A stretch of DNA of 64,000 nt from an uncultured Chroococcidiopsis sp. (lineage in GTDB: Bacteria > Cyanobacteriota > Cyanobacteriia > Cyanobacteriales > Chroococcidiopsidaceae): the NCBI GenBank assembly GCA_964248365.1, contig CAXTYC010000001.1, positions 224,001 through 288,000 on the forward strand, given 5' to 3'. The translations under genes were made by a program, and so were the position numbers. Below the pieces are notes generated by a model that made no database searches, was not told where the DNA came from, and saw nothing but the letters and a program-made list of their open reading frames with translations. Shown one piece after another: positions 2,504 through 36,420 of this stretch. The stretch's first letter is position 1; each line of letters begins with the position of its first letter.

Positions 2504-3667
<1,164 letters not shown>

Positions 3668-3720
3668 TTACTCGCTGATATTCGCTAAATCTACCGTATT
3701 TTGTCACCCCTTTTGGACAA

Positions 3721-3757
3721 GCTGGGGTAGCTGGGGTAGCTGGGGTAGCTGGGGTAG
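3721..3757. repeat. 9-bp tandem repeat (GCTGGGGTA)x4
   Basis: Directly visible upstream of sqdB. Confidence 0.9.
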
Positions 3758-3919
3758 AAAAGCTCTCTGCTTCCTCTAGCCCCTGCGCCAAAGCCTCTAG
3801 CTCCTCTAATATGAACAAATGTAACAATATTGCCATCAAAACGTTTCACCATCTTGACACCAAAAAGGGAAGCCGATAATGTGATATACATACCCGGGTA
3901 AGACGACTGAAAAAAAAAT

Positions 3920-4255: not shown

Positions 4256-4360
4256 ACTGCGCGCTTCATAAGGAGCGGCAACAGCTTGAAACAAGCGTTG
4301 TAAACTCAGCAATAACACTGTCTGTACCATCTTTATTCGGTCAAAAGTAGGTCAAAGGCA

Positions 4361-19092: not shown

Positions 19093-19410
19093 ATGACTCA
19101 ATCAAACCCAAAACCCCCAGTACGTCGAGGCAGAATATTCCCAGAACGCACTTTACTACCAGAAGAACTAGCTAGACGCAAAGCTGAACGAGTTGCATTT
19201 CATCAGCGTTGTCGAGCAATTTTTGACCTCGTGCGTCCCTCTCTGGTTGATCAATACTATGGCTGGTACATTGCCGTTGAACCGGATAGCGGTGATTATT
19301 TCATAGATGCAGATAAAGAAGCCGCAAGCCTTAAAGCACGTCAAAAGCACCCACACGCTATCCACTGTATGTTCTGCCTCAATGAGACTGGAGCCACTGG
19401 CAGAATATGA
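19093..19410 (+). CDS. Small hypothetical protein (DUF5678-like) preceding an aspartyl protease
   Basis: YYGWYIAVEPDSGDYFI...KARQKHP...GATGRI; ATGA overlap with the next gene. Confidence 0.65.
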   Translation: MTQSNPKPPVRRGRIFPERTLLPEELARRKAERVAFHQRCRAIFDLVRPSLVDQYYGWYIAVEPDSGDYFIDADKEAASLKARQKHPHAIHCMFCLNETGATGRI

Positions 19411-19769
19411 TTCACGGTACGTTTGGCGAGAGAGGGCAGCTATTTTTTCAAATTGATTTGATCGCATTTGATGGATTACATCTACCTGTTGATGCCCTGT
19501 TGGATACAGGTTTCACTGAGTTTCTTGCTATCAATCAACAAGACTTAGATGCTCTTGAGTGGCATTTTATCCGAGAGGAAGAACTGCAAACGGCACAAGG
19601 AAAAAGCATTTTTGACCTTTATACAGGCAAGGTGCTAATAGATGAACAAGAGTATGAAATTCCTGTTTTTGCTGGAGAGGAAATTAGAGAATTTTTGTGG
19701 AGTTCACAATGGTTAAAGATTTTGCCGCTGGTGGTAAATTATCAGGCTGACTTACTGACATTGGGATGA
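19407..19769 (+). CDS. Clan AA (retropepsin-like) aspartyl protease
   Basis: MIHGTF start, ALLDTGF catalytic motif, TAQG flap; the usual LLG motif reads LWS. Confidence 0.8.
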   Translation: MIHGTFGERGQLFFQIDLIAFDGLHLPVDALLDTGFTEFLAINQQDLDALEWHFIREEELQTAQGKSIFDLYTGKVLIDEQEYEIPVFAGEEIREFLWSSQWLKILPLVVNYQADLLTLG

Positions 19770-19934
19770 AAGTATCCTGAATTTTTCTCTGCTGTCGAAT
19801 CGAATTTTAGCTAATAGGTATTTCGGCGAAAATTCAAAGCGATCGCTTTTCTAATTCCTGCCCTTAATTCGCCTTAAGTAGCTAGGCAACGGAGATAAAA
19901 ACTAGCATCTTTGGGAGGCACTTATAGCAGACGT

Positions 19935-21520
19935 TTAACTTGCAATTAATGGCTCTAGTATTAGTTTACATTCATCAAAACAATCAAATTTACTATTATC
20001 CTCTAGCAGCCAGCAGACACCAATGTGTCGATCAAATAGTAAGTAGTCTTTTAACCAAGGTTGGTGAGTGGGTGGAGTTTGTAAAACAATTACTAATACA
20101 GCATTTTTCCTGATTTGTCCACTACTATAGTATCGATAACGATACTCATATAGTTGACTTACAGCTTTTCTAACTTGGTCAATAATAATTGAAGCATCGC
20201 TACTTTTCATTTCAAATATAAACGTCAAGCTATCAGGGCTTTCAGATTCAAGGTATGGTAAGTTCTGTCCTACAAGATATGTATTTTGAATGGGAAATCC
20301 GCGAGGATATAGCTGATTTATATCATCTAGATTCACGCCCACATCTATCAAATCTGTTTCCCAAGGTTCTAAACCAGCTTTCTCAATGCATTCCTTCATC
20401 TTTTGAACTAGCAAATCATGCCAAGCATTACGTCGTTCTCGTAAGATGCGTGTAATTTCAGGATCAGAAGTAGCTTGAGGTTGCTTTCTTTGTGTTGAAC
20501 TTGGTCTATATTCTTTTTCGATTCTTCTAGGTTCTGGTAGTAAGGACTGCAAAGAAGTTGGAGATTCTACAGGTTGTACAGATGTAGATATAGTTGGACT
20601 GATTATTATTTCTCCAGCTATTCTCACAACTGCTTCAGCTGAGATTGTTTTGCAAGCATCAAAGTAATTTGCCCAATCTCCAGAAGCTAACACGTTACAC
20701 ACCTGGTCTAGGTCAGTGCATTGATTAAAATCTTCAAAAAAGCAGTTTATTGATTTAATTGCTTCAATTTGAATGTCTCGATTATGATTAAGAACATAAT
20801 CTCCATAGTTCAAAAGTCTTAAATTATTACCACGTTCGACTTCAAAAAGTCCTGTAGCCTCCAAAAAAGCAAACCTCTTTTCACCTTGCACTATCGGCAA
20901 TTGATGATTGTGGTATTTTTCTAAAACTTCAATTACTTCTTTTTTTGATGGAAAGGAATTACCCCTTAATTCTTGACAATTCACCAGTGTGTAAATTTCC
21001 TCTAGTGTAACAAATATTTCATCCTTAAGCCTTCCTTGTAAATAAGCTTTAGCCTCAAAAATATTTAAAATTAGACGGAGAGGACAAACTTTATAACCCG
21101 ACTAATTAAACTAAGCGTTTTACTTTGGCTTTGATGTTCTAAACTAGGACGATTCCGATTGTACTGCTGACCACGACCGTCTGGTCTTTGATAAAGACTG
21201 AGCTGTAACCTGCACGCTTCTACATTTGGCTCATATCCAATCAAATAGCGACGAGCGGTTTCACTTATATAACACTTCCAATAACCTTCTTGCCAAACTA
21301 TATGACCTACTCCTAATATTGACATATATATAGAGTAAATATCCCTAAAGGGAGAGCGAGCAGCTGTTGGAGATAAGAAGTTAAGTGTTCGATCAAATTG
21401 TTCTCGCTCAAAAGTTTGACCATCAAAACTCAAGAACACTTCAGCCAGTTTTACTAACTTTCTTTTCCAATCTTCTAGGCTAGACGCATGAATTTTATGA
21501 CTAAATAAATCGTCCAGCAT
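19935..21520 (-). pseudogene. Putative restriction endonuclease (C-terminal PD-(D/E)xK), frameshifted near 21098
   Basis: ORF 21071-21520 joins the 19935 ORF through frame GYKVCPLRLILNIFEAK...; C-terminal DVG...IFEMKS...QVRKAVSQLYEY; starts 2 bp after the methylase stop. Confidence 0.65.
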
Positions 21521-21522
21521 GG

Positions 21523-22202
21523 CTATTCTTTTTGTAAATAATCTAAACCTAAATACCGAACTGCTTCTTCATAAGTTAGAGTGGTTGAAGCATCAAATAG
21601 ATGCTTACGTATATGTGTAGCTAACAGTGCAGCAAAAAGGGGTGGGACTGCGTTACCAACTTGCCGAATAGGATGTCTACTTGTTCCACTAAATGCCCAA
21701 AAATCTGGAAATGTCTGCATTCTAGCAGATTCTCGTGGTGTTACTTCACGAGGGGTATAAGGATGGATATGTCCCTTGCCACCTCCAGCATCAGAGCCTA
21801 CAACAATTGTAAAACTTGGACGATTAGGGTCAAGCTTATTAATCCGAGTTTTTGGATCACGTTGTCCAAATTTTAATGAAGCATACCGCTCTTGTATTGT
21901 CTGGCTATGAACTCTACCTTTAGAAAAGAGTGAAAGCCAGTTTCTACACTCGAAGCTCGATTGGCTCTCAATGTAATGCAGCAGTGTGAGTCTTGCTCAA
22001 CACAGCATCGAGTCGAGAATCCTGCAACTTCAAAGCCTAGATCCATACCACCTGCTCCAGTAAATAGACTGACTGTTGAAATTGGATCAAAGGCGGGACG
22101 TAGTAGCGATTTGTACTTAGGTACTGCTGATTCTGTTGATGTAGCCTCCTTTACTGCTTGCATTCGGATCAACCCAAAAAATTCGTATAGAGAAGATAAC
22201 AA
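21523..22202 (-). pseudogene. C5-cytosine DNA methyltransferase with a large internal deletion
   Basis: Motif I SLFTGAGGMDLGFE is fused out of frame (near 21920) to the TRD end and motifs IX/X (HP...REVTPRESARMQTFPD, QVGNAVPP); no PCQ or ENV motifs. Confidence 0.88.
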
Positions 22203-22351: not shown

Positions 22352-23707
22352 TTACCCCTTCGGAAATATCTCCCCTATCTGAGTGGGATTCAATCCATAA
22401 AATTCATCCTGGTGCTGTAATCCATTCAATCCCCACAAGAAAACACCCCTAGCACCCAAAGCAAAAGCTTGTTGCGCCCAATTTCGATAAATCTTGATTC
22501 GCTCTTGCTGCAATGCTGTAGGTGTTAGAGGCGATCGCAGCTGTTGCGACTGACTCCGACACCAACCCATCTCGCCAACATACCAAGGCTTATTACCAAT
22601 AGCAGCAGCGCGGGATTTTAGCCATTCTTCTCCCATTTTTATGTAGCTTTCTGAACGCTGGGGCTGATTCGGTTGTAATAAATAATTCCATCCTCGGCGA
22701 TCCGCATACTTATCGCCACAATCTTTCTGCTTTGGTAACTCCACTTCTTCATGAGGATACATATGAATACTCCCCATCGTGAAAGCGCTATTCTTTTCGT
22801 AGAGATTCGTTTTCAGATCGATTCCTTCATAGTACTGACTTTCATTTTTTAGGTACTTCAAATTAAGATCAACAGGAGACACTAACCAGCCTTCTTCTCC
22901 TGAAGTAATATTGACACTTGCAGGTAAATTTTTGCTTAAAAATGCTGCCTGACGATTTAGCCATTGAGCAACAATTTGATGGGAATATAAACCATCCTTG
23001 ACAACCTGATTACTTTCACTGTAACGACTTTTTCCTCTTGGCTCATTCATCACATCGACAATTACCACTTTGGAATTATTTTTAAAAGCATTAATTACCG
23101 GAGTTATCTGCGACTGGAATAATTTTTCGACTTCTGGTAAAGTATAAAAATCAATTGCGTATTTTTTATAAAATTCTTCGTCTTTTTTATTACAAAAGGC
23201 ATCAAACCAATCTTCCAGTTTAATGCGACCAGCCCATTCTAGATAACGCAGAATACCCCCATACTCTATCCAGTAGTTAGCAAGAACAGGCACTTGGTAA
23301 AAACCGATTTGGGCTAGAGATTGCATCATAATTTCTAAAATCTCTAGTACCTGTTCATCCATTTGGTCGGCTGTTGTCCAGAGAGCAGCATCAAATATAT
23401 TTTTTCCTAGTACTTTATTTGATATAGGATAATTGTTTCCTGCTAAAAACCGGATAGCATTAATTTTACTTTTGTCTCGTAATCTTGCCAACCCTAAATC
23501 ATCTTGAAGATATTTAGCAACTACTTTACGAGGAACAGCATTAGGATTTTGTTTTGCTTTACGGTAACTCTCCATTAGGAGATAGAAAGCATTGATACCA
23601 TAAAGATGCTCTTGGGAAGCTGCCATAGCAGGAATCATTTGAGAAGCTAATGCTGCTCCAGACATTTGCGTTAAAAATTTTATAAATTTTCTTCTGGGTA
23701 AATGCAT
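22352..23707 (-). CDS. Tat-exported GH5 (clan A) glycoside hydrolase, beta-mannanase-like
   Basis: RRKFIK Tat motif; NYW.EYGG; acid/base MNEPR; SIHMYP; nucleophile VGEMG; FLW. Confidence 0.78.
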   Translation of the reverse strand: MHLPRRKFIKFLTQMSGAALASQMIPAMAASQEHLYGINAFYLLMESYRKAKQNPNAVPRKVVAKYLQDDLGLARLRDKSKINAIRFLAGNNYPISNKVLGKNIFDAALWTTADQMDEQVLEILEIMMQSLAQIGFYQVPVLANYWIEYGGILRYLEWAGRIKLEDWFDAFCNKKDEEFYKKYAIDFYTLPEVEKLFQSQITPVINAFKNNSKVVIVDVMNEPRGKSRYSESNQVVKDGLYSHQIVAQWLNRQAAFLSKNLPASVNITSGEEGWLVSPVDLNLKYLKNESQYYEGIDLKTNLYEKNSAFTMGSIHMYPHEEVELPKQKDCGDKYADRRGWNYLLQPNQPQRSESYIKMGEEWLKSRAAAIGNKPWYVGEMGWCRSQSQQLRSPLTPTALQQERIKIYRNWAQQAFALGARGVFLWGLNGLQHQDEFYGLNPTQIGEIFPKG

Positions 23708-23743
23708 AAGTATAGTTATTATAATAATTAATATTCACAAATC

Positions 23744-23824
23744 ATCAGTTATCAGTTTTCTGTTATTACTCATCAGTTATCAGTTATTAATTCCTGGTGG
23801 GGGTAACTGGTAACTGATAACTGA
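23744..23824. repeat. Inverted heptamer STRR (ATCAGTT / AACTGAT)
   Basis: Directly visible. Confidence 0.75.
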
Positions 23825-24160
23825 ATAAATATCCAGGTAACTGTCTTTAAAATATTGTGTAAACCGGATTAGTATAAATGCTCCCTGTCCTATATTTTAA
23901 TAGCTTTTTACCCATTAGGATATATATTTACAAAGAATGAAATATTAATGAAGCTTCTACCCTAAGTTGGATGGAATGTTTCATGAATTTCATGAAGATT
24001 ACATGAAAACACACAGTTGTGCTGTTGTGGATTCAGATGCAAATACCCTTCCACGAGGGGGGGAGATTAATTGAATCGAAACACTGTTTTTGCAACAGCA
24101 CAAAGTCCTATACCGCGCTACATTTAGCGTCGGGCAATAGCAAGATAAACAGGAGAGTAG

Positions 24161-24652
24161 ATGAGCGCAATATACCCACGTAGAAAAGTTTTACGCCCAA
24201 TGGCGTGGCTGCTTAGTGTGTTGCTAATAGTTCCATTTTTGTCAGCTTGTGGAGGCGGTTCTCGCCACAGTTCTGCTCCACCGCCACCCGTTGACGATAC
24301 TCGTGGTGGAATAGTGTCTAATCCTCAAGGCGCAAATCAACCCGAAGCCAGGAAGAAGGGATTAACGACAGGGCAAAAAGTGGCGATTTTGGGTGGAGCC
24401 GCCGCACTATACTATCTCTACAATCGGCATAAAAACAAGCAAGAGCAGGGAGCGCAAGGCAAGTATTATCTTTCTAAAAACGGGCGCGTTTACTACCGCG
24501 ATGCTGAAGGTCGCGCTCACTGGGTAACGCCGCCGCAGGGGGGAATTCAAGTCCCAGAATCAGAGGCGCAGCAGTACCGAGATTTCCAGGGATATAATAA
24601 CAGTCCTACAGGTCGAAACTTAACTGACTTGCAGCCAAGTGCCGCACAGTAA
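24161..24652 (+). CDS. Hypothetical lipoprotein
   Basis: AGGAG RBS, lipobox LSAC, GQKVAILGGAAALYYLY, YYLSKNGRVYYRD. Confidence 0.8.
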   Translation: MSAIYPRRKVLRPMAWLLSVLLIVPFLSACGGGSRHSSAPPPPVDDTRGGIVSNPQGANQPEARKKGLTTGQKVAILGGAAALYYLYNRHKNKQEQGAQGKYYLSKNGRVYYRDAEGRAHWVTPPQGGIQVPESEAQQYRDFQGYNNSPTGRNLTDLQPSAAQ

Positions 24653-24748
24653 TGTTGTTGGAGGCGTTAAACTAAGGCATTGGCGATCGCAGCTTTAGAA
24701 ACAAAATTCACTCAGCCGTTCCAGTAGGAATGTAAAAAGGAGATAAAT

Positions 24749-25054
24749 ATGGTTGACGACTTTTTACGCAGAGCAGCGGACGCTTTTTTGGGTAAACACA
24801 ACGATGAGGAGCGCCCACGTCCAGCCAGTGAAGATCCCTATGGCGATCCAGCCGACACTGGATACTACGGCGACGTTCGCCCAGCTAGCGAAGATCCCTA
24901 TGGCGATCCAGCCGACACTGGATACTACGGCGACGTTCGCCCAGCCAGCGAAGATCCCTACGGCGATCCAGCCGATCAAGACTATTACGGTAACGCTCGT
25001 CCGGCTAGCGATGATCCCTACGGCGATCCAGGCGATCGCCGCAACATCTGGTAA
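24749..25054 (+). CDS. Small acidic repeat protein (four RPASEDPYGDPAD-type units)
   Basis: AAGGAG RBS; 60-bp tandem repeat with largely synonymous variation in this frame. Confidence 0.8.
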   Translation: MVDDFLRRAADAFLGKHNDEERPRPASEDPYGDPADTGYYGDVRPASEDPYGDPADTGYYGDVRPASEDPYGDPADQDYYGNARPASDDPYGDPGDRRNIW

Positions 25055-25068
25055 TCTAGAGCAACCAT

Positions 25069-25111
25069 GTAGAACTCGTTCCCAAGAACCCAGCCTGGGA
25101 ACGAGTTCTAC
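25069..25111. repeat. REP-like palindrome with 16-bp arms
   Basis: GTAGAACTCGTTCCCA-N11-TGGGAACGAGTTCTAC. Confidence 0.85.
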
Positions 25112-25167
25112 TTGTGTCTTGTGTCTTGTGTCTTGTGTCTTGTGTCTTGTGTCTTGTGTCTTGTGTC
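25111..25167. repeat. Heptamer STRR (CTTGTGT)x8
   Basis: Directly visible. Confidence 0.95.
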
Positions 25168-25176
25168 TCCTTTCTT

Positions 25177-25995
25177 CTAAGGTGTTATGGTTTCTGTAGA
25201 AGGTGGAACGGGTTTGACTTTTTGACGACGAGAGCCAAAGGTATACCAAATTTGGGCTTCAAAACTACCCCCATTTTCGGTCAAATTCTTGAAACCTCCT
25301 ACACTTAGAGTTAAATTGTCCGTTGCACCCCACCGAAATTGTCCGCCAAGTTTCGAGAAGTCCTTTTGATCTGATTCTTGCAAGCGATAGATACCATAAA
25401 ATTGAGTGGCTAGTGCAAATCGCTTCACTAGATCGACACTAAGTTCGCCAGTCAGCCGCAATTCATTACTTGCAGAACCAAAGTAGTCTCGATAGCCAAT
25501 TTCTAAAGTTCCATAGCCATTGCGTTGTTTATCTATTGCGAAACCACGAGTGATCGGTAAACTGATTTCTACCCCCACATCCTGATTCCCTGAGCCGGAT
25601 GGATCTTCCTTAGCATCATAACCCAGAGGTACAATTAGACTTCCCTGAATAGCTGTTGCCCAATTCGGATCTCGGTTGAAGCGCCAACGTACTCCTAACT
25701 CTTGAGCAGAAAAACCTTGATTGCGGTTGCGATTATAATCATTTTTTGACCAGGTATAAGGAGATTTAAAAATTAAGGTTAAATCATCCTGTAAGCCATG
25801 TTCGAGATAAAACTGAATCTCCTGTTTATGGAATGTGTCAGTGTCAAAGTTACTGTAGCTAAAGGAAGTAAAGTTAAAGCCCTTGGGTTGGGTAAATCCT
25901 CCACAATAGCCTCGCCCTCCTGCACAAATTGATAGTAACCCAGTTAGTGCTACAGATGCGATCGCCCTCGTCAGATGTTTTACCCTAAAGCCCAT
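25177..25995 (-). CDS. Probable outer-membrane beta-barrel protein
   Basis: Signal peptide, alternating amphipathic strands (YLEHGL, ELGVRWRF, LEIGYR, LSVGGF, QIWYTF); overlaps the upstream gene. Confidence 0.65.
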   Translation of the reverse strand: MGFRVKHLTRAIASVALTGLLSICAGGRGYCGGFTQPKGFNFTSFSYSNFDTDTFHKQEIQFYLEHGLQDDLTLIFKSPYTWSKNDYNRNRNQGFSAQELGVRWRFNRDPNWATAIQGSLIVPLGYDAKEDPSGSGNQDVGVEISLPITRGFAIDKQRNGYGTLEIGYRDYFGSASNELRLTGELSVDLVKRFALATQFYGIYRLQESDQKDFSKLGGQFRWGATDNLTLSVGGFKNLTENGGSFEAQIWYTFGSRRQKVKPVPPSTETITP

Positions 25996-27068
25996 TGTCC
26001 CTCCTGTAAGACTCCTTTAAAAGTCTTGGCAGCATCTAGGGCATTATAGGGATTGTTCTTGTACAGACCATAATGCATGAGAGAAAACTTATCTAGCCCT
26101 AAATGAGTTACTGATTTAAGCCAATCTGGACGAGACATAATCGCAAAATCACGAGTAACTGTATCAGCACGACCGCCATTCGGGTGATACTCCTTAATCG
26201 AAGGTTCATAGTGAGAAACCATCAGCGATTTGTTGTACTTCGAAAAAACTTCACAACATTGACGAATTTGCTCTGGATTACCCAAATCAGCACGTTTGAG
26301 TTCTGGATTATACTCACCCGTTGGTCTTGGTCGCATAGATTGAAACGCAATCCCATCCATCTGCTGTAACATAGAAGCAAACGGTGGAATCATACTCCTG
26401 CCTTTGCGTTGAGACCGATAATCAAACGTAACAATCCAACCTCCCCAACTCGGAGCTACCCAAGCATTAGGCAATTGACTTTTGATTACCGCTCTTGCCT
26501 TTAGTAAATTTTGCATCAGAGCGTCGTAATACCGAGCCGTTGTGCTATTGTAAGTGTCTGCTGGTACACGCCAATAAGAAAATTCTGTTGCCAATGTCCA
26601 ATAGGTTTGTCTGCCTTGAGGATTTGCCTTGCGAATGTATCCGGCTAATTCTTCTAAATCTTCTAAAAATTGTTGAGAAATATGGTAATCTCCTGTAGGT
26701 AGAGATGTATCATCTTCCCAACTAATCACTTGCAGACTGTAACCTTGAGCAAACCAGGCTGACAACAAACCCTGCTTGTGCCATTGTTGCCAGAAACTTA
26801 AATCTCCTTTTTTGTGGTCAAAACTATTAAGCCAACCAGCGAGAAAATCGGGAGACCAAGCTCGGACTAGTTCTTTGACATCTGGATTATTGTGTACTTC
26901 TCCAATCAGTCGGGATGGATCTGCTCCCATCCCCAATTTCCAAGGTCTAAAATTAGCTGCTTTAGCCAGCGATGATTCACTGTTTAACAAATTTTTTTTA
27001 CATGAAGCCAAAAATAAAGAAGTAGCAAATAATCCTTGTAAATATTGACGGCGAGTATAACGTTTCAT
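25980..27068 (-). CDS. Tat lipoprotein, probable TIM-barrel glycoside hydrolase-like protein (GH26/clan A-like)
   Basis: TRRQYL Tat motif and LASC lipobox; Trp-rich; LQVISWE, TLATEF, DGIAFQS strand pattern. Confidence 0.5.
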   Translation of the reverse strand: MKRYTRRQYLQGLFATSLFLASCKKNLLNSESSLAKAANFRPWKLGMGADPSRLIGEVHNNPDVKELVRAWSPDFLAGWLNSFDHKKGDLSFWQQWHKQGLLSAWFAQGYSLQVISWEDDTSLPTGDYHISQQFLEDLEELAGYIRKANPQGRQTYWTLATEFSYWRVPADTYNSTTARYYDALMQNLLKARAVIKSQLPNAWVAPSWGGWIVTFDYRSQRKGRSMIPPFASMLQQMDGIAFQSMRPRPTGEYNPELKRADLGNPEQIRQCCEVFSKYNKSLMVSHYEPSIKEYHPNGGRADTVTRDFAIMSRPDWLKSVTHLGLDKFSLMHYGLYKNNPYNALDAAKTFKGVLQEGQWALG

Positions 27069-28570
27069 GGATTGAGGCGTTGCAAAAGCTTATAGTGTGA
27101 TGTTCCAAATACCTCTTGAAATCCTGGCAAAGTAGTTTCAGCTAGTTGGGGCCAGTATGATAAAATTCGATCTTGCTCCTGACCACGAGTTTCATTACCT
27201 GGAACTAAGATAAAATCTGTTAAAAGGTCAGGTTGCTGTAAAGCCAAGAAAAATTCATTTTGGTAAGGCAAAATAAAGTGGCTAGCATCATTAATTAAAT
27301 AAATAAGTGGGAAATTAACTGCGTCATCCATTAAGACCTTTTGACCAGGTAAAAGTTTTTCAAACAGCACCTGAGCAATTTGTTGCTGTGCTTGCTTTTG
27401 CAAGAGCCATTGCTGCACTGACAGTGTGTCTGGCATTTCTTGGCGAGTTATTTGTCGCCATAAGATAGTTTCCTCTGGGACAAATTGATTTTGTTGAAGT
27501 AAAGAGACACTACAGAACAGACTTATAACTAAAGCCCCAGTAAGGACAAATCGCTGCCATTGTGTTGTTAAGGGAAACTGTTGTAAAATTAGTGGTAAAA
27601 TACCTAAGAAAATACCAAAGCGGCTGGCTTCAGGCATAAAAGTTCCCTGCCAAAAGCCAGCCACCAAAAAAATCACAGGTAAAAGCAAAATAGAAGTTGA
27701 TATTATCCATTTTTGCTCTCGCCAAACTACCCAACCAGCCACCAAAAGATAAACTGGAACAACTTGGATAATCCAGGTAAAACTACCTAGCCAACTACTC
27801 CAAAAATCTTCTTGTTGTAGGAATATTTTTGTTTCTGCTAAACGCATTCCACTGTAGTAACTATTGATAAAATAATAGGCATCTCCTGTAAATAACCAGT
27901 TCATATACATCCAGGTGGCAATCAATACCACACTCATAAATAGAGTGACTAAAATGGCTGTGAACCTAAAACCCCTGGATTCATTAGGAAAGAGTCGAGC
28001 TAAAGCAAGCGCTACCACAGGCAAAGTAAACCAAGCTTCGTAGCGCAGCAGCATCAAGGGAGCTAATCCCAATCCTAATAAAACCAACGCCAGTGTTGAA
28101 GGTAAGGCAGTCGCCTTGTTCTGGCTTAACATCCATAACAGCCCCATTAGCAGACTTAAAAAAATTGTTACCGTTACCCAAGCAGGGCTACGCACTAACA
28201 TTAAACTAAAGACAGGATTTAGTAAAATTAAAGCCGTCCAAACCCATTGCCAAGTTTTAGCAACGGGTGAATTTCCTATCTGCCAGGTAAGCAATCCAAT
28301 TAGAATAGCTCCCAGAATGACTTGCAAGGATACTGCCGATCCTAGAATCAAAGTGCCGTAAACTAACAAAGGAGGAAAAATAGAAACGATCGCTCTATAG
28401 CGTGGTTCGGCTCCAGTTAGGGCTTCGAGTGCTTTAGCTCCTAAGAACTCTAAGTCGTAACTTGAGAAACCTGTTATATCTAGCCAAGCTAATATCAGAC
28501 TCAGCACCAACAGAGCCAACAAGCCAGCACTCAGCCCCATCATTCGATTAGGCATATTGGGATTAACCAA
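27065..28570 (-). CDS. Polytopic membrane protein, GT-C fold (PMT/ArnT-like) glycosyltransferase candidate
   Basis: About 10-12 hydrophobic segments; FPPL, LRYEAW, NWLFTGDA, and a soluble C-terminal domain with VLMDD. Confidence 0.6.
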   Translation of the reverse strand: MVNPNMPNRMMGLSAGLLALLVLSLILAWLDITGFSSYDLEFLGAKALEALTGAEPRYRAIVSIFPPLLVYGTLILGSAVSLQVILGAILIGLLTWQIGNSPVAKTWQWVWTALILLNPVFSLMLVRSPAWVTVTIFLSLLMGLLWMLSQNKATALPSTLALVLLGLGLAPLMLLRYEAWFTLPVVALALARLFPNESRGFRFTAILVTLFMSVVLIATWMYMNWLFTGDAYYFINSYYSGMRLAETKIFLQQEDFWSSWLGSFTWIIQVVPVYLLVAGWVVWREQKWIISTSILLLPVIFLVAGFWQGTFMPEASRFGIFLGILPLILQQFPLTTQWQRFVLTGALVISLFCSVSLLQQNQFVPEETILWRQITRQEMPDTLSVQQWLLQKQAQQQIAQVLFEKLLPGQKVLMDDAVNFPLIYLINDASHFILPYQNEFFLALQQPDLLTDFILVPGNETRGQEQDRILSYWPQLAETTLPGFQEVFGTSHYKLLQRLNP

Positions 28571-28759
28571 AAGAGTTTATTCCTCTCCTCGTAAAATAGT
28601 ATTTTTAACCGTGTAAAATAGCCGATCATAACAATTTATGGAGTACTTGTGATAAATAAAACATATAAAATAAAATTTTGTCCAAATATAAAATTGAGCG
28701 CCTCCTCATGCAAATTTTGCTTAGATAGAATAAAGTTGTCTTTAACAGTGAGCCTGGAG

Positions 28760-28787
28760 CCAGTTACCAGTTATCAGTTACCAGTTA
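28760..28787. repeat. Heptamer STRR (CCAGTTA)x4
   Basis: Directly visible in the divergent promoter region. Confidence 0.8.
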
Positions 28788-29204
28788 AATGTTGGTAGCG
28801 TTTGAATAGCAGACAGAATTTACCAAGGGTGGTTTTGTTATCTACTTTCCTACGCAGTCTGTTACTATTGGTTGTCTTTTCTTATTTATACTTTATCTTA
28901 CAAGATATTTGTGTAAAATTATACCCAAATTTTCCAAGGGCAGAAAAACTTGGGTACTTAAAGTCGAAGATTTGCCCAGATGATTAAATTTGCAAAACAA
29001 TGTATTTGAAAGGATAAATTTAACTTATAATTTGGCTTTGATTAACTATTATTAAATGACTAAAAGAGTTAGAATTTTAAAATCAATATCATTACCCGAT
29101 TACCCTGATAATTTTGAACTATATTTTATCAAGTCAAAGTTGATAAATATAAGGCAGTAACAAATAGGATCTACTATTAGTTAATAACTAATAAGGAAAT
29201 TATT

Positions 29205-31280
29205 TTGGTGCATAATAGCAGGCTTTTTAAAACTCAAACAAAATATTATTCTGATATGAGAAAAAAATTGACTAAAAAAATTAGATACACTGCTTGCATT
29301 ATTTTAATCTGTGCGATCGCTCCCCTTGTCAACTTAGGCATTAGCGAGGCTGCCCCTGCCCCTGCACCTGAAGTAATTTCGCTGAGAACTTTAGGTTATA
29401 ACCGTTCAATCGTCATGTCGGGAGTCAACCCAGAATTTGAAATTAGCGTACCAGCCCCCAAAGGCGGTCTAGATCCTGCCGCTAGTTTTGCCCGCCTGAT
29501 TATAGAACCCTCATCAGTAATGAATGAAAACGCTACAGTCCGATTATTGGTCTATGGCGAACCAATGAAAGTAGTTTCAGTCAAGCAACTGCTAGCTAAT
29601 CCTGTTGTCACTCTACCACTGCCGCCCCTGCCCCAGGGAGAATCATACATTAATATTGCTATACAACCACATTTATTCATTAGTAATAATATTCGTCAGG
29701 ATTTACCCACTGGCAACTTGTATCTAAAGATAAACAAAGATAGTTTCTTTCAACTTACTCCCCAACTTAGTGACAACAGTATTGATGGCTTCTTCAAATC
29801 TTTCTATAAACAAGTTGATTTAGTAGTGCCAGCCAACCTCAACAGAGATCAGGCACAAGTGGCTTTATGGATGTATAGCGTCTTAGCTTATCAATTTCGT
29901 GAGTATCAAATTCCGATTTTTTGGCGCTGGGGTACAGCGCCAAAAATTGACAATGCAGCCCAAGTGATCTTACACACAGATACAACTGGTCCCGACGTGG
30001 AGAGGCGTGGCTCTATTTTGCGGGTGCGGGCAAATGCTAGAGCAGTTCAATCCTTGGCGCTAGATTTTTATCAGCCTGCATTAGTGGGTGGAGGCGTAAC
30101 AGTTGAGGATGTAGATTCCTTTAATGCAAAACCGAGCGTCCAAAGCCGTTCTTTTCGAGAATTAGGATTCAGAGATAGCGCCACGCGGATATCTGCTGGT
30201 ACACAGTCTTTCCCGCTAAAATTTGATTTATCTCAACTGGGGGGGCGACCGCAAAATTTAGACTTGGCATTAAATGCAACCTTTACCCCTGTCTATGGTC
30301 AGCAGGGTGAGCGCCTCACTGCCCAAGTATACTTAAATCACACCCTAGTTCAGTCTTTTAACCTTCAGGATAAGACAGTTCTGAAAACTAACTTAGCATT
30401 GCCAACCAATCAACTTCAGCGCACCAATACCCTAGAGGTGGTATTTGCCTATGCTCCCAGTGAAAGCAATGGCGATAACAAATCAACTGGAGAAGTAATT
30501 GTACAGATTGATGGAGATTCATTTCTGAGTTGGAATGGTTATCAAGGACCTACCGGAGCGTTGGGTGATTTACCCCATGTATTTCTTCAGCCTGGACAGC
30601 TAATTATAGATACCAAAAAACCAGCTTTGTTAGCAGGTTCAGCTTATCTATTAGGAGCGATTAGCCGTCTTGGTCAGGAACCAATTTTTCCGCAATTAAT
30701 AGACGCTGCATCGATTCAAGATTGGTCGAATTTACCCAAAGACCAAATGAATAGATCTCCCAGTTGGCGGTTACTGGCTGTTTCTCCTCAAGCAGCTGCC
30801 TTACCGTCTCCTGTACGTTTGAATAAAGGTTTGTTTGAAATTTACAATCCCGTTAATCAAAAGCGCTTGCTTCAGGCGCAACCTACCGATCCGTTTGGAA
30901 TACTGCAATATTTTTCTTATCAAAATACTCCTACACTGTGGCTGACTTGGTGGGGTTTAGAACCAGCAATGGCGGAACAGCTTGGGATGGCTTTGGGAGA
31001 TCCTCGCACTTTGTTAGCAAGTCAGCTCGATGGGAATGTGGTGACAGCAACTGATGGGCGACGAGTGCAAATTTGGGACTTAGGCGATCGCACACTCCAA
31101 GTTAATTATCCCGCCGCCCGAAACTGGCAAATATTTTGGCAACGCTACATCAACCCCTTGATTCTTTTGGGACTGCTGTTAGGGGGATTTGTTGCATGGC
31201 GCGTTTATCGGCGAGTTGGGCGATCGCCATTAGCTCCTGCTTCCGCCTCTAAACCTATAGAAAAAATTAAAAAACCATGA
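29205..31280 (+). CDS. BcsB-like periplasmic co-polymerase (ATG start possibly 29256)
   Basis: N-terminal signal, two repeats starting ISLRTLGY and SFRELGF, beta-sandwich-type modules (VYLNHTLV, NTLEVVF), single C-terminal TM; ATGA overlap with the GT2 gene. Confidence 0.7.
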   Translation: MVHNSRLFKTQTKYYSDMRKKLTKKIRYTACIILICAIAPLVNLGISEAAPAPAPEVISLRTLGYNRSIVMSGVNPEFEISVPAPKGGLDPAASFARLIIEPSSVMNENATVRLLVYGEPMKVVSVKQLLANPVVTLPLPPLPQGESYINIAIQPHLFISNNIRQDLPTGNLYLKINKDSFFQLTPQLSDNSIDGFFKSFYKQVDLVVPANLNRDQAQVALWMYSVLAYQFREYQIPIFWRWGTAPKIDNAAQVILHTDTTGPDVERRGSILRVRANARAVQSLALDFYQPALVGGGVTVEDVDSFNAKPSVQSRSFRELGFRDSATRISAGTQSFPLKFDLSQLGGRPQNLDLALNATFTPVYGQQGERLTAQVYLNHTLVQSFNLQDKTVLKTNLALPTNQLQRTNTLEVVFAYAPSESNGDNKSTGEVIVQIDGDSFLSWNGYQGPTGALGDLPHVFLQPGQLIIDTKKPALLAGSAYLLGAISRLGQEPIFPQLIDAASIQDWSNLPKDQMNRSPSWRLLAVSPQAAALPSPVRLNKGLFEIYNPVNQKRLLQAQPTDPFGILQYFSYQNTPTLWLTWWGLEPAMAEQLGMALGDPRTLLASQLDGNVVTATDGRRVQIWDLGDRTLQVNYPAARNWQIFWQRYINPLILLGLLLGGFVAWRVYRRVGRSPLAPASASKPIEKIKKP

Positions 31281-33598
31281 GGGAATTCCACCCCCAGATA
31301 GAGGCACAACTTTTAGCAAAGGGCTATCTCAATTCCGAACAACTTGAGCAAGCTCTAGAGCTACAAGTAAAAACTTCCTGTTCTTTGGCAAAAGCTCTAT
31401 GGAGTTTGAATTTATTAACTCAGCCAGAGTTTTTGCAAGTAATTGGGACTGTAACTGGTCACATCTTATTAACTGATTGGTTGCTAGTTTCAGGCAGCAC
31501 CCTCGACTTTAGCATTGCCAAAGCCTTTGAACCTGCCTATATGAGAGAATTAGGTTTCTTTCCCTGCGCTTGGCAAGATAGCTCGACTTTAGTTGTAGCC
31601 GTAGAAGAACCAACCAACCCAGCCATTACTCAAGCCATCCGCAGCATTTGGCAGCAAATCAAGATTTATGAAGTTCTAGCTACCGACAACCAAATTCTTA
31701 GCCTGGTGTTTGAGGAAAATCTAGCAACTCAACTGCTAGACACAGGTAAACTCTCCATCGCTCAATGGCAAGAAGCTCAAACTATTCAACAACGTACAGG
31801 TTCACCTCTTGGAGAAATTCTGCCCCGTTTGGGCTATCTCAGACCGATTGATTACCTAGAAATTCTCTCTGGAATCACAGGCTTAAGCATATTTTCTCGC
31901 CTCAAAGGGACGGGAATTAGGCAAATAGACCCAAAACTGATGCAGCGGTTTGACACCCACATCATGATGAAACACCGCTTTCTACCTTTAACTTGGGTGA
32001 ACAAATATACAATGATGGTGATGGTACAAGACCCCTTTGACTTAGTTGCAGAGGCTACCATCTATGCTAAATTTCCTGGGGTAGAAATTACTAAAGTACT
32101 GGGAACAGAAAATGATATTACTCGGCTAATTGACTCTTCCTACCGAAAAGATTTTAGTCAACAAGCTGTTTTTCAATTACTATCTCGCGCACCAAAAGAC
32201 TCTGCTGCAAGAGTTTTCACCCCTGCCCAAATTCTAGCAGGCTACTTGATATTTGCTGTGTTTTTATGGGGTCTGACAGTTGATTGGTGGCAGACTTTAG
32301 CTACTTTAATTACAACGTTGAATGTTTTTTTTGCTGGGTCTGTGCTGTTTAAAATGGTTCTAAGTTTAATCGGTGCAGCAGACCGGACTCATCAAATTAC
32401 CAACGCCGAAATTAGTTCTATAGATGAGCAGACATTGCCTACATATAGTGTTTTAGTTCCAGTTTACAACGAGCCGGAAGTGACTGCAAACTTAATTGAG
32501 GCTCTGAGTAGACTTGATTACCCTCATGAAAAACTAGATGTATTACTTCTATTAGAAGAAAAAGATTTAGTAACTATTAAAGCAGCACAAGCGGCTAATC
32601 CACCTCGTTACGTTCGATTTATATATATTCCAGATAGCCAACCTAAAACCAAGCCGAAAGCTTGTAATTATGGCTTAGCATTTGCCAGAGGAGAATATTT
32701 AACTATCTACGATGCCGAGGATATTCCCGATCCAGATCAACTCAAAAAAGCTATTTTTGCTTTTAGACAAGGTTCTCCTAGCCTCGTTTGTGTGCAAGCA
32801 GCTTTAAATTACTACAACCGTAATGAAAACTTTCTGACGAGGATGTTTACTTTAGAATACTCCTATTGGTTTGACTACCTTTTACCTGGGTTGGAAACTT
32901 TGGCTCTGCCTATCCCTTTAGGAGGAACCAGCAATCATTTTCGCACTGACCGTTTAAGGGAATTAGGCGGATGGGACCCGTTTAATGTGACTGAAGATGC
33001 AGATTTAGGCATTCGAGCTAGCAAACGGGGTTACACAGTAGGAGTGATTAATTCAACTACCTATGAAGAAGCAAACTGTGAATTGAAAAATTGGATTCGC
33101 CAGCGTTCTAGGTGGATTAAAGGATATATGCAAACTTGGCTAGTCCACAATCGTCACCCTTGGAAATCCCTGCAAAAGCTGGGATTAAAAAGCTGGCTGG
33201 CTTATCAATTTTTGATTGGTGGTACTGTCGTCATTTTTCTAACTAGTCCGATTTTGTGGATACTGTTTGTTTATTGGATTGTTACCCGCGCCTACTGGTT
33301 AGAAAACTTGGTTCCTGGTTGGGTATTATATATTTCCTTGTTTAACCTAAGTATTAGCAATGCTTTAGGTATATATTTAAATATGATCGCGGTGTTTCGG
33401 CGGCGCTATTATCAACTTTTACCTTATGCGCTGCTAAATCCGTTATATTGGCAGTTGCACTCAGTTGCTGCTTACATGGCTTTGTGGCAACTTTTTTCAA
33501 AACCATTTTATTGGGAAAAGACTATTCATGGTATCAGTAAATTTGCCAAAAATTATTTACCATTTTCAGATAAAACTGAAACCAGTAAAACTGCTTAG
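31277..33598 (+). CDS. Processive GT2 polysaccharide synthase with two N-terminal MshEN (T2SSE_N)-like domains
   Basis: LVPVYNE, KPKACNY, YDAED, TEDAD, QRSRW, WEKT.HG; flanking TMs; N-terminal LLxxGxL...LxxALxxQ and PLGEIL..LGYL repeats. Confidence 0.88.
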   Translation: MREFHPQIEAQLLAKGYLNSEQLEQALELQVKTSCSLAKALWSLNLLTQPEFLQVIGTVTGHILLTDWLLVSGSTLDFSIAKAFEPAYMRELGFFPCAWQDSSTLVVAVEEPTNPAITQAIRSIWQQIKIYEVLATDNQILSLVFEENLATQLLDTGKLSIAQWQEAQTIQQRTGSPLGEILPRLGYLRPIDYLEILSGITGLSIFSRLKGTGIRQIDPKLMQRFDTHIMMKHRFLPLTWVNKYTMMVMVQDPFDLVAEATIYAKFPGVEITKVLGTENDITRLIDSSYRKDFSQQAVFQLLSRAPKDSAARVFTPAQILAGYLIFAVFLWGLTVDWWQTLATLITTLNVFFAGSVLFKMVLSLIGAADRTHQITNAEISSIDEQTLPTYSVLVPVYNEPEVTANLIEALSRLDYPHEKLDVLLLLEEKDLVTIKAAQAANPPRYVRFIYIPDSQPKTKPKACNYGLAFARGEYLTIYDAEDIPDPDQLKKAIFAFRQGSPSLVCVQAALNYYNRNENFLTRMFTLEYSYWFDYLLPGLETLALPIPLGGTSNHFRTDRLRELGGWDPFNVTEDADLGIRASKRGYTVGVINSTTYEEANCELKNWIRQRSRWIKGYMQTWLVHNRHPWKSLQKLGLKSWLAYQFLIGGTVVIFLTSPILWILFVYWIVTRAYWLENLVPGWVLYISLFNLSISNALGIYLNMIAVFRRRYYQLLPYALLNPLYWQLHSVAAYMALWQLFSKPFYWEKTIHGISKFAKNYLPFSDKTETSKTA

Positions 33599-33630
33599 AA
33601 AATATAATTATTGCTCTTTCTAAGCGAGTT

Positions 33631-35022
33631 ATGCCAACTTTAAAAAAATTATTTTCTTACCGTCACAAGATTACCTATTTAGTCAATAGGGGCGGGTTTA
33701 ATCAAGATATCAGCCCAATAACAGATAGTTTGACAAATCCGCCCGTAGCCACGACAGAAAACCTACGCCCCACGTCAGAAGAAAGAAGAATTACGAATTC
33801 TAAATTACGCTTATGGGTTATAAGTTTAGCCCTATTAGCATTAGCATCTGGCTGTGTACCTACCTCGCAATCCCAAAATTTAACGGCAAAAATAAAGTCA
33901 TATAAGCCTAATGTAGTAGCAGCTAGTTCTAGTCCTGTTGATACTGCTTTGCTGCAAAAGCTGGAAACTCGACTCTATCAACAGCTGCAAACATTGATTG
34001 CACAAAAGCAGGGAGCGCGTCAAGACGGGTATGTATACACTGTGGACTTGAGCCAAATCTTAATGTATGCAGCATTGAAAAAAGATCGCAGGCTTTATTC
34101 TCCCTTAAGGGATTTCGCTATCAAAAATTTAATTATAGACAAGCAATCAGATCCCTATACGCGGGGGTTTGTCCTCTGGCGCTATCAGCCTGGGAACCCT
34201 CCAGATGCATCAGGAACAACGGAAGCCTTGCGCTTGGCTGAAAGTCTGTGGTTGGGTAGCCAGGTATTTGGGGATGGTAGCGATCGCGATCGAGCTATAC
34301 TGCTGCTCAAGGGGTATGCTCGACACGCTCATACTGACCATCAAGTTTGGCTAATCCGCAACTACTTCAACCTGCAAACGAGGGCTTTCGCTACTAACTC
34401 ATTTTTAGTAGGTTACGATCCAGATTTGCTGCAAGATGTGGGTGAGGCGACTGGAGATGTGACACTACAAGCCGTAGCGCAAAAATCCTACTCGATAGTG
34501 CGACAGGCTGTTACCCCTTCAGGATTACTCTATGACATTGTTCAACCTGAAGTGCTGACACTTGTACCGGATCTCAAGTACCTAGTACTCTTTTCTCCCA
34601 ACGATGTGGTGAAGCTGGCTAATACCTGTACTGTGGCTGAACGAGCCACAAGGGGAGCGCCCCAAATCGGACAAAAAGTGATTCGCTTTGCAATGGAACG
34701 CCTACCTAAACTGGCTACCTACTATTACGGTCGTACTGGGGAATCAGTCCTACGGCAGCCTGCGGAAGTCGCAACTTATGCTTGTCTTGTGCGGCTTGCT
34801 ATCAAGTTGAAAGATCAAACAGCCCTCAATGCTTTTCTAGAACCGTTTATCACCCATGCACAAGCTGTTACACAAAATACAGAAGAGTTTAGCCTCTACA
34901 CAGTTATTGAGGCTCTATTAGCCCTTCAGTCGGTGTCAGAGCAATCAACTGCTGCACAAAACAAGGTAGAAAGTCTAACTCTCAATCGGGTGGGGTTGCA
35001 CTTGAACCGTTCTGCATACTAA
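33631..35022 (+). CDS. Lipoprotein, probable (alpha/alpha)6 glycoside hydrolase (GH8-like)
   Basis: Lipobox LASGC; helical; FVLWRY...DASGTTEALRLAESL resembles the GH8 W...ATDGDLxIAxAL region; directly follows the GT2. Confidence 0.5.
   Translation: MPTLKKLFSYRHKITYLVNRGGFNQDISPITDSLTNPPVATTENLRPTSEERRITNSKLRLWVISLALLALASGCVPTSQSQNLTAKIKSYKPNVVAASSSPVDTALLQKLETRLYQQLQTLIAQKQGARQDGYVYTVDLSQILMYAALKKDRRLYSPLRDFAIKNLIIDKQSDPYTRGFVLWRYQPGNPPDASGTTEALRLAESLWLGSQVFGDGSDRDRAILLLKGYARHAHTDHQVWLIRNYFNLQTRAFATNSFLVGYDPDLLQDVGEATGDVTLQAVAQKSYSIVRQAVTPSGLLYDIVQPEVLTLVPDLKYLVLFSPNDVVKLANTCTVAERATRGAPQIGQKVIRFAMERLPKLATYYYGRTGESVLRQPAEVATYACLVRLAIKLKDQTALNAFLEPFITHAQAVTQNTEEFSLYTVIEALLALQSVSEQSTAAQNKVESLTLNRVGLHLNRSAY
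33686..33747. repeat. Degenerate REPIN inside the 5' end of the GH8-like CDS
   Basis: ATAGGGGCGGGTTT...AAATCCGCCCGTA. Confidence 0.75.
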
Positions 35023-35207: not shown

Positions 35208-35262
35208 TGAGTGAGGAAATTGAAAACGGGCTGCCACTACTAAACGACGTTTGGTTGAAGCG

Positions 35263-36420
35263 ATGTTAGGTAAGTTACTAGAGGGACGTTACCAAGTTGT
35301 ACAAGTCCTAAGTTCAGGAGGATTTTGTGAAACCTATCTTGCCCAAGATACTCATACACCAGGTCATCCCATTTGCGTTGTTAAGCATCTCAAGCCTGCT
35401 AGCAACACCCCTAACTCGCTACAGACTCTGAGATGGTTATTTACTGGAGAAGCACAAGCGCTGAAAAAACTGGGCAACCATGACCAGATTCCCCAGCTGT
35501 TAGATCACTTTGAAGATAATCAAGAGTTCTACCTAGTGCAAGAGTTCGTCCAAGGGCATACTGTGAGTGTAGAAATGCAATCTGGTAGGCGCTGGAGTGA
35601 AAGCCAGGTGTTTAAACTTTTGCAAGAGGTTTTAGATATACTGCAATTTATTCACTCTCATGGGCTAATTCATCGAGACATTAAGCCAAATAATTTGCTC
35701 CGAAGAAAGCAGGATAATAAATTTGTCCTAATTGACTTTGGCTCAGTCAAGCAAGCTTGGTCACAAGTGATAACATTGCAAGGACAGAAAATTAATACCT
35801 TTGCCATTGGTTTACCAGCTACCATTACCATTGGCACTCCAGGTTATATGCCGACTGAGCAGGAGCGGGGTAAACCACGCCCTAATAGTGATATTTATGC
35901 TCTGGGGATAGTTTGTATTCAAGCGCTAACAGGTGTGCATCCTACCCAATTGGTAGAAGACCCAGATACGTGTGAGATCCTATGGCAACAATACTCTCAT
36001 GTGAGCGCCCATTTAGGTGAGGTGATCAACAAAATGGTGCGCTACAGCTTCAAAGACCGCTATCAGACTGCAACAGAAGTACTAGAAGCGCTGCAACCAT
36101 TAGCTGTTCTCTACCAACCAACACAGCAAGCAGAGGGGTTTGACATAGATCAAAGTGCTAGTGAGGATTTCAACTCTTTTTTTGATCAAGAAGACACAGT
36201 AACATTTGATTTATGCGATCGCGCAGAACCACTATCAAACAACACCAGCGATGATTTATCTGCTACCCCACCCAAGAAATCTATATCATTGCTTGACATA
36301 GGAATCGGTGTTACCGCTGCTATAGCTTTGATGATTGGTATTTACTTTTCTTTACTCTCCCCTGCTCCGATTGTGAAAATTGAAAAGTATCCTGTTTCTA
36401 TCCCACTCAAGAGCAACTGA
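35263..36420 (+). CDS. Hanks-type Ser/Thr protein kinase with a C-terminal TM
   Basis: SGGF, VVKHL, HRDIKPNN, DFG, GTPGYMP, SDIYALG. Confidence 0.93.
   Translation: MLGKLLEGRYQVVQVLSSGGFCETYLAQDTHTPGHPICVVKHLKPASNTPNSLQTLRWLFTGEAQALKKLGNHDQIPQLLDHFEDNQEFYLVQEFVQGHTVSVEMQSGRRWSESQVFKLLQEVLDILQFIHSHGLIHRDIKPNNLLRRKQDNKFVLIDFGSVKQAWSQVITLQGQKINTFAIGLPATITIGTPGYMPTEQERGKPRPNSDIYALGIVCIQALTGVHPTQLVEDPDTCEILWQQYSHVSAHLGEVINKMVRYSFKDRYQTATEVLEALQPLAVLYQPTQQAEGFDIDQSASEDFNSFFDQEDTVTFDLCDRAEPLSNNTSDDLSATPPKKSISLLDIGIGVTAAIALMIGIYFSLLSPAPIVKIEKYPVSIPLKSN

Follow-up and report, generated by a model that had tools for sequence, protein, structure and literature searches.

Which polymer would a cyanobacterium secrete through a cluster that joins a processive glycosyltransferase of family GT2 to a BcsB-like partner and several hydrolases, and has such a machine been described before? 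The question is raised by seven genes at positions 22352-35022 of a 64,000-nucleotide stretch (the window, meaning the whole stretch analysed) of contig CAXTYC010000001.1 from an uncultured Chroococcidiopsis sp., which an earlier note on this DNA had read as an undescribed synthase-dependent exopolysaccharide system. Our sequence comparisons indicate that the cluster is a variant of the Xag/Sfz-type system, with a four-gene core (BcsB-like protein, GT2, GT-C-fold protein and small barrel) corresponding to Sfz1, Sfz2, Sfz3 and Sfz5, respectively. That it secretes a polysaccharide is very probable. We favour, at a probability of about 0.62, the reading that the seven genes form a Xag/Sfz-type secretion system that uses GDP-mannose to make beta-1,4-mannan, or a beta-glycan rich in mannose, destined for sheath or biofilm; the narrower claim, that the backbone is a beta-mannan built from GDP-mannose, is hardly less probable. 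All seven open reading frames (ORFs) lie at the coordinates given in the earlier note, in two divergent runs with a GH5 gene nearby:

22352-23707, minus strand: GH5 of twin-arginine translocation (Tat) type, beta-mannanase-like, putative accessory hydrolase (Pfam GH5, PDB matches)
25177-25995, minus strand: small outer-membrane beta-barrel, 272 amino acids, Sfz5 counterpart, likely export pore
25980-27068, minus strand: Tat lipoprotein, 362 amino acids, clan GH-A TIM barrel nearest GH26
27065-28570, minus strand: GT-C-fold membrane protein, 501 amino acids, Sfz3 counterpart
28571-29204, no strand: AT-rich spacer of the divergent runs, presumed to hold both promoters (28.9% G+C)
29205-31280, plus strand: BcsB-like periplasmic co-polymerase, 691 amino acids, Sfz1 counterpart; alternative start ATG at 29256 possible (Pfam BcsB)
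31277-33598, plus strand: processive GT2 synthase, 773 amino acids, two N-terminal MshEN domains, Sfz2/XagB counterpart
33631-35022, plus strand: lipoprotein, 463 amino acids, GH126/GH8-like hydrolase

The close packing and AT-rich intergenic region described previously were confirmed: ORFs overlap by 16 nt (barrel and Tat lipoprotein), 4 nt (Tat lipoprotein and GT-C) and 4 nt (BcsB-like and GT2), a gap of 32 nt separates the GT2 from the GH126-like lipoprotein gene, and the spacer measures 634 nt, with a G+C content far below the 43.4% of the genome. A promoter and terminator scan of the locus stayed at the level of shuffled sequence (28 versus 31.5 and 15 versus 13.5).

The Xag/Sfz-type core and its relatives

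The processive motif set D,D,D,QRSRW reported earlier was found in the GT2 (D430, D479-A-E-D482, T572-E-D and Q609-RSRW), in which Pfam recognised two MshEN domains together with GT2 families. The BcsB-like protein matched Pfam BcsB (5.7e-11) in two stretches, carries hydrophobic segments at 29-47 and 649-667, and had no match in a PDB sequence search. Along with the co-occurrence described below, these features uphold the idea of a synthase-dependent machine with a BcsB-like partner. The cluster resembles cellulose (Bcs) systems in its processive GT2, BcsB-like partner, periplasmic hydrolase and likely outer-membrane pore, and the GT2 found its closest matches in PDB and NCBIfam among BcsA/CelA. 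However, a canonical bcs cluster was rejected: no PilZ domain was found in a Pfam search of the cluster proteins, as the earlier note had stated, there is no tetratricopeptide-repeat barrel of the BcsC kind, and the CelA model TIGR03030 scored 85 bits against a cut-off of 699. The window system, moreover, adds a GT-C-fold subunit and belongs to a family linked to GDP-mannose genes.

NCBI/JGI give the name XagB to five GT2 homologues that share 62-76% identity in the catalytic region. What is cited here from the literature refers to excerpts of the papers concerned. In Koeksoy (2021; PMC8250860), Sfz1 is BcsB-like, Sfz2 combines IPR007831 with GT2, Sfz4 is a predicted GH10 protein and Sfz6 a CotH protein; the excerpts give no function for Sfz3 and Sfz5. 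Sfz5 is absent in the Betaproteobacteria, and we therefore take it as accessory. An sfb cassette of the same kind has been called bcsB plus xagBCD-like (Kato 2015, PMC4643136). We compared the window proteins with the printed Mariprofundus PV-1 sequences, judging motifs by eye and without scores. In the stalk-formation clusters sfz1-6 (Mariprofundus) and sfb1-4 (Ferriphaselus), the BcsB-like Sfz1 gene lies directly upstream of the synthase, as in the window, and Sfz1 has an N-terminal signal and a C-terminal anchor, the window protein likewise having hydrophobic ends. Sfz2 shares KPKACNY, PIPLGGTSNHF, GGWDP, WIRQRSRW and YWEKT with the window GT2; Sfz3, of about 500 residues, shows LEN...P-PL and W-YMNW-F-GDP as in our GT-C alignment consensus; and Sfz5 shares G-GD-Q-G-R and an IIPTGY...LG-G stretch with the barrel family.

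The claim that the system is undescribed therefore does not stand, because its core appears to correspond to the published sfz1/2/3/5 genes, called xag-like; this largely bears out one of the grounds for refutation that the earlier note had named, orthology to an operon already characterised. The window differs from sfz in its two divergent runs, in two MshEN domains with degenerate motifs where Sfz2 keeps RIG, and in three hydrolases (GH5, GH26-like and GH126-like) that replace Sfz4, with no CotH-type Sfz6. We call it a variant because the Sfz4 slot is taken by other hydrolases, a slot that varies among the relatives. The likeness to xagABCD of Xanthomonas is one of names and descriptions: the name XagB on close GT2 homologues, a biofilm role, to which xagA and xagB contribute (PMC3609779, PMC3528676), and dispersal linked to a mannanase. 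A literature search, thin on subscription journals, returned no assignment of mannan to Xag/Sfz and no cyanobacterial copy.

A genome scan with the GT2 returned at least 582 relatives, and the best 80 loci were kept; all counts out of 80 refer to these. Genes were counted with profile hidden Markov models (HMMs) trained on these loci themselves, and the counts indicate presence only; HMMs were preferred to a grouping into families, in which a single fused ORF had lumped ManC and BcsB together. Of the core genes, the BcsB-like one was present in 68 loci, GT-C in 70 and the barrel in 46; the hydrolase genes were less frequent, at 22 (GH26-like), 9 (GH126-like) and 4 (window-type GH5); the corresponding numbers for the 44 loci with wide flanks were 41, 40, 29, 17, 7 and 3. 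Outside the cyanobacteria the core genes usually form a single co-directional run. Within the phylum, the GT2 and GT-C profiles hit the same 4 of 401 genomes, in which the barrel profile also matched at E < 1e-59 (seven other genomes gave weak matches, 1e-11 to 1e-17), and GT2 and GT-C are both missing from two genomes of the family to which the window belongs. Three genomes in which only BcsB and GT2 adjoin, or the partners are distant (G119, G367 and G401), retain GT-C and barrel genes elsewhere; G367 has a homologue of the window GH5 between them, and no GH26-like gene was found in any of the three. Gloeomargarita-type loci keep just BcsB and GT2 together. Neighbourhood conservation, which the earlier note had proposed checking with the GT2 as query, was thus found across phyla, and the co-occurrence of the system genes is far beyond chance. 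The GT2 itself groups with cyanobacterial sequences, nearest to a Leptolyngbyaceae metagenome-assembled genome and Chroococcidiopsis, and in a quick tree the cyanobacterial sequences form one clade (support 99).

Several loci show departures from this arrangement. L075 and L076 have no BcsB-like gene. CotH proteins (compare Sfz6) flank the cluster in Bacteroidota/Kryptonia loci (L060, at 1914-4727; L058 and L069 hold further members of the family), of which L058 and L069 also carry HlyD-like and VTC-domain genes, and in Hydrogenobaculum L044 a PelB-like gene combining tetratricopeptide repeats and a barrel (2112-5108) lies directly upstream. No Xanthomonas locus was present among the best 80 of the at least 582 GT2 relatives or among 11 plasmid matches.

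The small barrel agrees with the outer-membrane barrel recognised previously. Its profile had 4RL8 as sole PDB match (E 0.0017, weak), and the gene was found in 46 of 61 loci that we take to be diderm or probably diderm, in none of 17 Chloroflexota/Bacillota loci presumed to be monoderm, and in neither of two unnamed loci; it was likewise not found in the five monoderm genomes scanned, for which completeness was not stated. Restriction to diderm loci fits an outer-membrane pore, so that the protein is likely to be the export pore. A tail of 19 residues follows the Phe of the last strand (25177-25235), and is also present in L002 and L003.

Mannose-related genes and hydrolases

The choice of mannose is suggested by linked sugar-nucleotide genes. 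ManC or a phosphomannose-isomerase cupin was encoded in 17 of the 80 loci (seven Thermostichus-type, one Leptolyngbya, two Bacillota, four Aquificaceae and three Synergistota), a GDP-mannose linkage spanning five lineages; in the seven Thermostichus-type loci the isomerase cupin gene sits at the position of the divergent spacer. Control queries taken from the genome's own proteins gave no locus for WecB or for proteins that we recognised as GalU-like, GlmU-like and RmlA-like, one for a presumed GlgC-like protein and two for presumed phosphomutases, and the rough chance expectation of linkage over 1.28 Mb is less than one locus. In addition, a conjugative Geobacillus plasmid carries, between mobile-element genes, a cassette of nucleotidyltransferase, bcsB, GT2 and GT39 genes, in which the nucleotidyltransferase has ManC as its best model (2e-71, below the cut-off of that model). 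In plants, CslA enzymes are GT2 proteins that polymerise GDP-mannose to beta-1,4-mannan; they are eukaryotic Golgi enzymes without BcsB, GT-C or barrel partners, and the chemistry proposed for the window GT2 would be the same. A phosphomannose isomerase gene also adjoins the sfz cluster (PMC8250860), and work on Xanthomonas campestris implicates a beta-1,4-mannanase in the dispersal of biofilm, xag directing an uncharacterised biofilm polysaccharide (PMC3528676).

The hydrolases could be placed more closely than before. The nearby Tat GH5 was recovered by Pfam at 4.7e-5 (23.4 bits, slightly below the cut-off of 23.5), with catalytic glutamates E222 in NEP and E379 in GEMG; all ten of its PDB matches were GH5 beta-mannanases or a beta-mannosidase acting on beta-mannan or beta-mannosides (E 1.9e-5 to 0.037), suggesting that it is beta-mannanase-like. 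The Tat lipoprotein (RR at 6-7, C23), already taken for a glycoside hydrolase, resembles a clan GH-A barrel nearest GH26: 23 of 30 Atlas matches fell in one GH26 set (score 0.95), and its model (predicted local distance difference test, pLDDT, 84) best matched GH26 2BV9 (Z 18.1, root mean square deviation (rmsd) 3.8, 263 aligned residues), with GH1 within 1 Z. It had no Pfam match, and a PDB profile search was uninformative (E 0.58). E162 follows strand 4 and E288 follows strand 7; in the family, E162 is kept in 20 of 20 members and E288 in 11 of 20, with Met in eight Aquificota sequences (L027, L034, L039, L040, L043, L044, L046 and L047) and Gln in one. The homologues with Met at this nucleophile position are possibly inactive binders or proteins of differing mechanism. 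L017 (G402, Egbenema) has an internal stop within the GH26-like gene.

For the lipoprotein at 33631-35022 (C75), the label 'GH8-like' held in so far as its Atlas matches were GH8 clusters (0.92), but its only PDB profile match was 3REN (1.2e-7), which is CPF_2247, the founder of GH126, and the assignment was refined accordingly. Key residues of CPF_2247 are Glu84, Asp136, Arg139, Tyr194 and Tyr307 (PMC7479077). E198 and R201 of the window protein align with Asp136 and Arg139, by a numbering offset derived by hand, and D139 lies one residue off Glu84, beyond the aligned stretch.

Elsewhere a GH113 mannanase fills the hydrolase slot. Specifically, the alphaproteobacterial plasmid locus L091 has a GH113 gene (2861-3952, minus strand; protein P0155) head-to-head with the BcsB-like gene, and all seven PDB matches of P0155 were mannanases. 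By eye and without scores, Mariprofundus Sfz4 follows P0155 along its length; published as GH10-like, it thus resembles a GH113 beta-mannanase. There is no GH113-type gene in the window, and one weak partial match was found on contig C75 of the genome.

The synthase, its MshEN domains and the GT-C-fold protein

MshEN binds cyclic di-GMP (c-di-GMP) through tandem RLGxx(L)(V/I)xxG...LxxxLxxQ motifs, and a change of Gly11 abolished binding (PMC5013675). The proposal that MshEN stands in place of PilZ was right as to the two domains, but a working switch in the window is doubtful because the binding motifs are degenerate. The four RLG positions of the window GT2 read QIE, SLA, NLA and PLG; the complete pattern was seen in 26 of 71 homologues and in none of the 15 of the cyanobacterial clade; and 5 of those 15 retain Gly11 in the second domain, versus 41 of the 56 others. 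In the L075 homologue RLG is intact. NCBIfam NF053729 (MshEN) scored above its cut-off on the GT2 (50.6 versus 38), but aligned only from model position 6. Judged from these motifs, the window copy is unlikely to bind c-di-GMP through MshEN. The c-di-GMP control described for Xanthomonas xag is transcriptional, via Clp (PMC3609779, PMC3528676).

The GT-C fold attributed to the leftward membrane protein was supported by structure. Its model (pLDDT 94) matched Pmt4 (Z 15.0, rmsd 4.8, 343 aligned) and ArnT (Z 13.5, rmsd 5.0, 415 aligned), and the first 44 structural matches were all GT-C-fold chains (Z 8.2-15.0), those at the top including the mannosyltransferases Pmt, ALG3, ALG12 and DPY19; the C-terminal domain matched an AglB domain (3VU0, Z 5.9). 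Pfam PMT_2 was found in 3 of 68 family members, a PDB profile search was uninformative (rhomboid, E 0.019), and a further protein search seeded with the GT-C alignment brought no additional information and no match named XagC. In GT-C enzymes generally, a catalytic acid is conserved where the helix of the first external loop begins. In the alignment of 68 family members, the best first-loop column, position 39, holds D or E in 63%, leaving no conserved acid there, and the second half of the earlier claim, that the protein is an active decorating enzyme, is thus doubtful. Conserved residues are K46, R57, the W220-Y222-N224-W225 motif, D415/D416 (94%), located in the periplasmic domain, and D467 (90%). 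The match list also includes chain U of glycosylphosphatidylinositol (GPI) transamidase, which we take to be a non-catalytic GT-C fold and which gives a scaffold role some precedent.

The GT-C-fold protein and the synthase are predicted to bind each other directly. Co-folding of GT2 residues 300-760 with the GT-C protein gave ipSAE values of 0.75, 0.73 and 0.75 (best control 0.00), with contact agreement of at least 96% and partner pLDDT of at least 85. The mark used, which 116 of 157 solved pairs and 2 of 215 mismatched ones attained, is only rough for this pair because our own alignments were used. In the models, GT2 364-370 and 667-715 face GT-C residues 56-62, 156-164 and 198-227, an interface including the conserved Y700 and F707 of the GT2 and R57 and Y222 of the GT-C protein. 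To our knowledge, there is no solved complex of a processive GT2 with a GT-C-fold subunit.

From these data we infer the donor, the linkage and the part played by each component. The GT2 would polymerise GDP-mannose and move the growing chain across the inner membrane. In the predicted contact the GT-C-fold protein packs on the membrane helices of the GT2; there it would act on the chain as it emerges, using a lipid-linked donor, or else be a subunit without catalytic activity. The BcsB-like protein probably leads the chain on through the periplasm and the small barrel is its likely exit in the outer membrane, while trimming, clearing or release of the polymer probably falls to the three exported hydrolases. 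The c-di-GMP switch appears intact in many relatives, with binding probably lost in the window copy.

Competing readings and neighbouring genes

Several observations weigh against a mannan. The PDB matches of the GH5 are weak (the best at 1.9e-5), a GH5 next to the Thermotogota locus L070 has endoglucanases as its matches, and the GH26-like protein is closest to 2BV9 and the GH26 xylanases 7XS3 and 3VPL, tied with GH1, the GH26 mannanases reaching only Z 15.6-15.8. PssZ, a GH126 enzyme, cleaves a polymer of N-acetylmannosamine (ManNAc) and galactose, not mannan. In 63 of the 80 loci no ManC or phosphomannose isomerase gene is linked, and there is none in the window, the genome's copies lying on contig C2; the loci are kin, so the counts overstate independence; and PMC3528676 states that the substrate of ManA is not known. 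GDP-mannose could instead feed a side-chain donor for the GT-C protein. In one rival reading, the backbone made by the GT2 is a glucomannan or a beta-glucan, either cellulose-like or of mixed linkage, GDP-mannose serving mainly for side chains added by the GT-C protein from lipid-phosphate-mannose, in functional analogy to BcsG, the membrane-bound modifier of cellulose systems. The BcsA/CelA matches, the mannosyltransferases among the top GT-C matches, the conserved D415/D416, the GH8/GH126-like and non-mannanase GH26 matches and the endoglucanase-type GH5 next to L070 would suit it. We nevertheless consider it unlikely, given the CelA score far under its cut-off, the lack of GalU-like genes in all 80 loci, the lack of a conserved first-loop acid in the GT-C protein, and the failure of a search of low sensitivity to detect, in the 80 loci, a second GT2 for synthesis of a lipid-linked donor; in general, moreover, GH5 and GH113 endo-mannanases cut backbones, not single side residues.

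Less probable still is a surface glycoconjugate, in which the GT2 would make a short or lipid-linked glycan and the GT-C protein would transfer it to a protein or lipid acceptor. The GT-C fold covers oligosaccharyltransferase architecture including the C-terminal domain, direct contact with the GT2 is predicted, and a glycolipid-synthase annotation was reported for an xagB-like gene (Kato 2015, PMC4643136), but the full processive motif set, the BcsB-like partner, the envelope-dependent barrel and the endo-hydrolases suit a long secreted chain, and xag mutants lose biofilm. About equally improbable, or slightly more so, is a ManNAc-containing polymer. The genome carries wecB, yet identity of the GT2 with NfrB was rejected: PRK15489, which we take to be the NfrB family, scored 24 bits against a cut-off of 537. 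Excerpts of the literature describe Escherichia coli NfrB as a glycosyltransferase joined to MshEN that needs WecB, an Achromobacter nfr cluster with a BcsB homologue, and the Listeria Pss system with its GH126 hydrolase PssZ. However, wecB clusters with nfr in Achromobacter but with none of the 80 loci, MshEN is N-terminal in the window GT2 and around residue 490 in NfrB, and a GT-C fold and small barrel are not described in the excerpts on NfrAB and Pss (further literature drawn on, also in excerpt: bioRxiv 10.1101/2021.03.12.435129 and PMC8669472). Finally, the two runs are transcribed apart and Gloeomargarita-type loci pair only BcsB and GT2, as unrelated neighbours might; but such an accidental neighbourhood was rejected and has next to no probability, in view of the single co-directional runs in most other phyla, the genomes that keep dispersed partners and the identical distribution of GT2 and GT-C across 401 genomes.

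If the beta-mannan reading is correct, it would give a specific and cheaply testable answer to a standing question: the cited papers, in excerpt, name the xag/sfz genes without naming the polymer, PMC3528676 asking what Xag makes and what ManA cuts. Alongside the cellulose, alginate, Pel and poly-N-acetylglucosamine (PNAG) systems, bacteria would then have one for mannan synthesis, of relevance to the mats of hot springs, the sheaths of cyanobacteria and the stalks of iron oxidisers. More tentatively, with the odds somewhat against it, Xag/Sfz may be a widespread bacterial machine for secretion of beta-1,4-mannan in which a processive GT2 and a GT-C-fold subunit form a membrane complex; such an architecture is not known from the synthases of the other four polymers. 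On that wider reading, the Xanthomonas Xag polymer would be the ManA substrate, the stalk scaffold of iron oxidisers a mannan, and the cyanobacterial branch would have doubled, then uncoupled, its c-di-GMP sensor. Our analysis also proposes roles for Sfz3 and Sfz5 and predicts the synthase/GT-C complex.

The GH5 gene lies 1.5 kb beyond the barrel gene, with two small genes between them (24161-25054): a small lipoprotein gene (24161-24652, plus strand) and one for a 101-residue protein (24749-25054, plus strand) made of a 60-bp repeat in 3.6 copies. They were rejected as part of the system: neither matched any of the 80 loci, and contig C4 carries paralogues of both as a pair (71% and about 70%). 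Heptamer tandem repeats (23744-23787 and 25111-25168) flank this inserted pair. Between comB and the GH5 gene (19093-22202) there are two small overlapping ORFs shared with L001, two unidentified ORFs of low G+C content and a C5-methylase fragment, a region that looks like the remnant of a restriction system. A Ser/Thr kinase gene with a C-terminal membrane anchor (35251-36420, plus strand) follows the cluster in the window and in L001, not in L002 or L003, and the kinase could be an alternative regulator. L001, the closest relative, has the BcsB-GT2-GH126-kinase block in the opposite orientation with respect to comB, and there the GH5 gene comes after the kinase; the two layouts are alike in placing the GH5 gene downstream of, and co-directional with, one of the runs.

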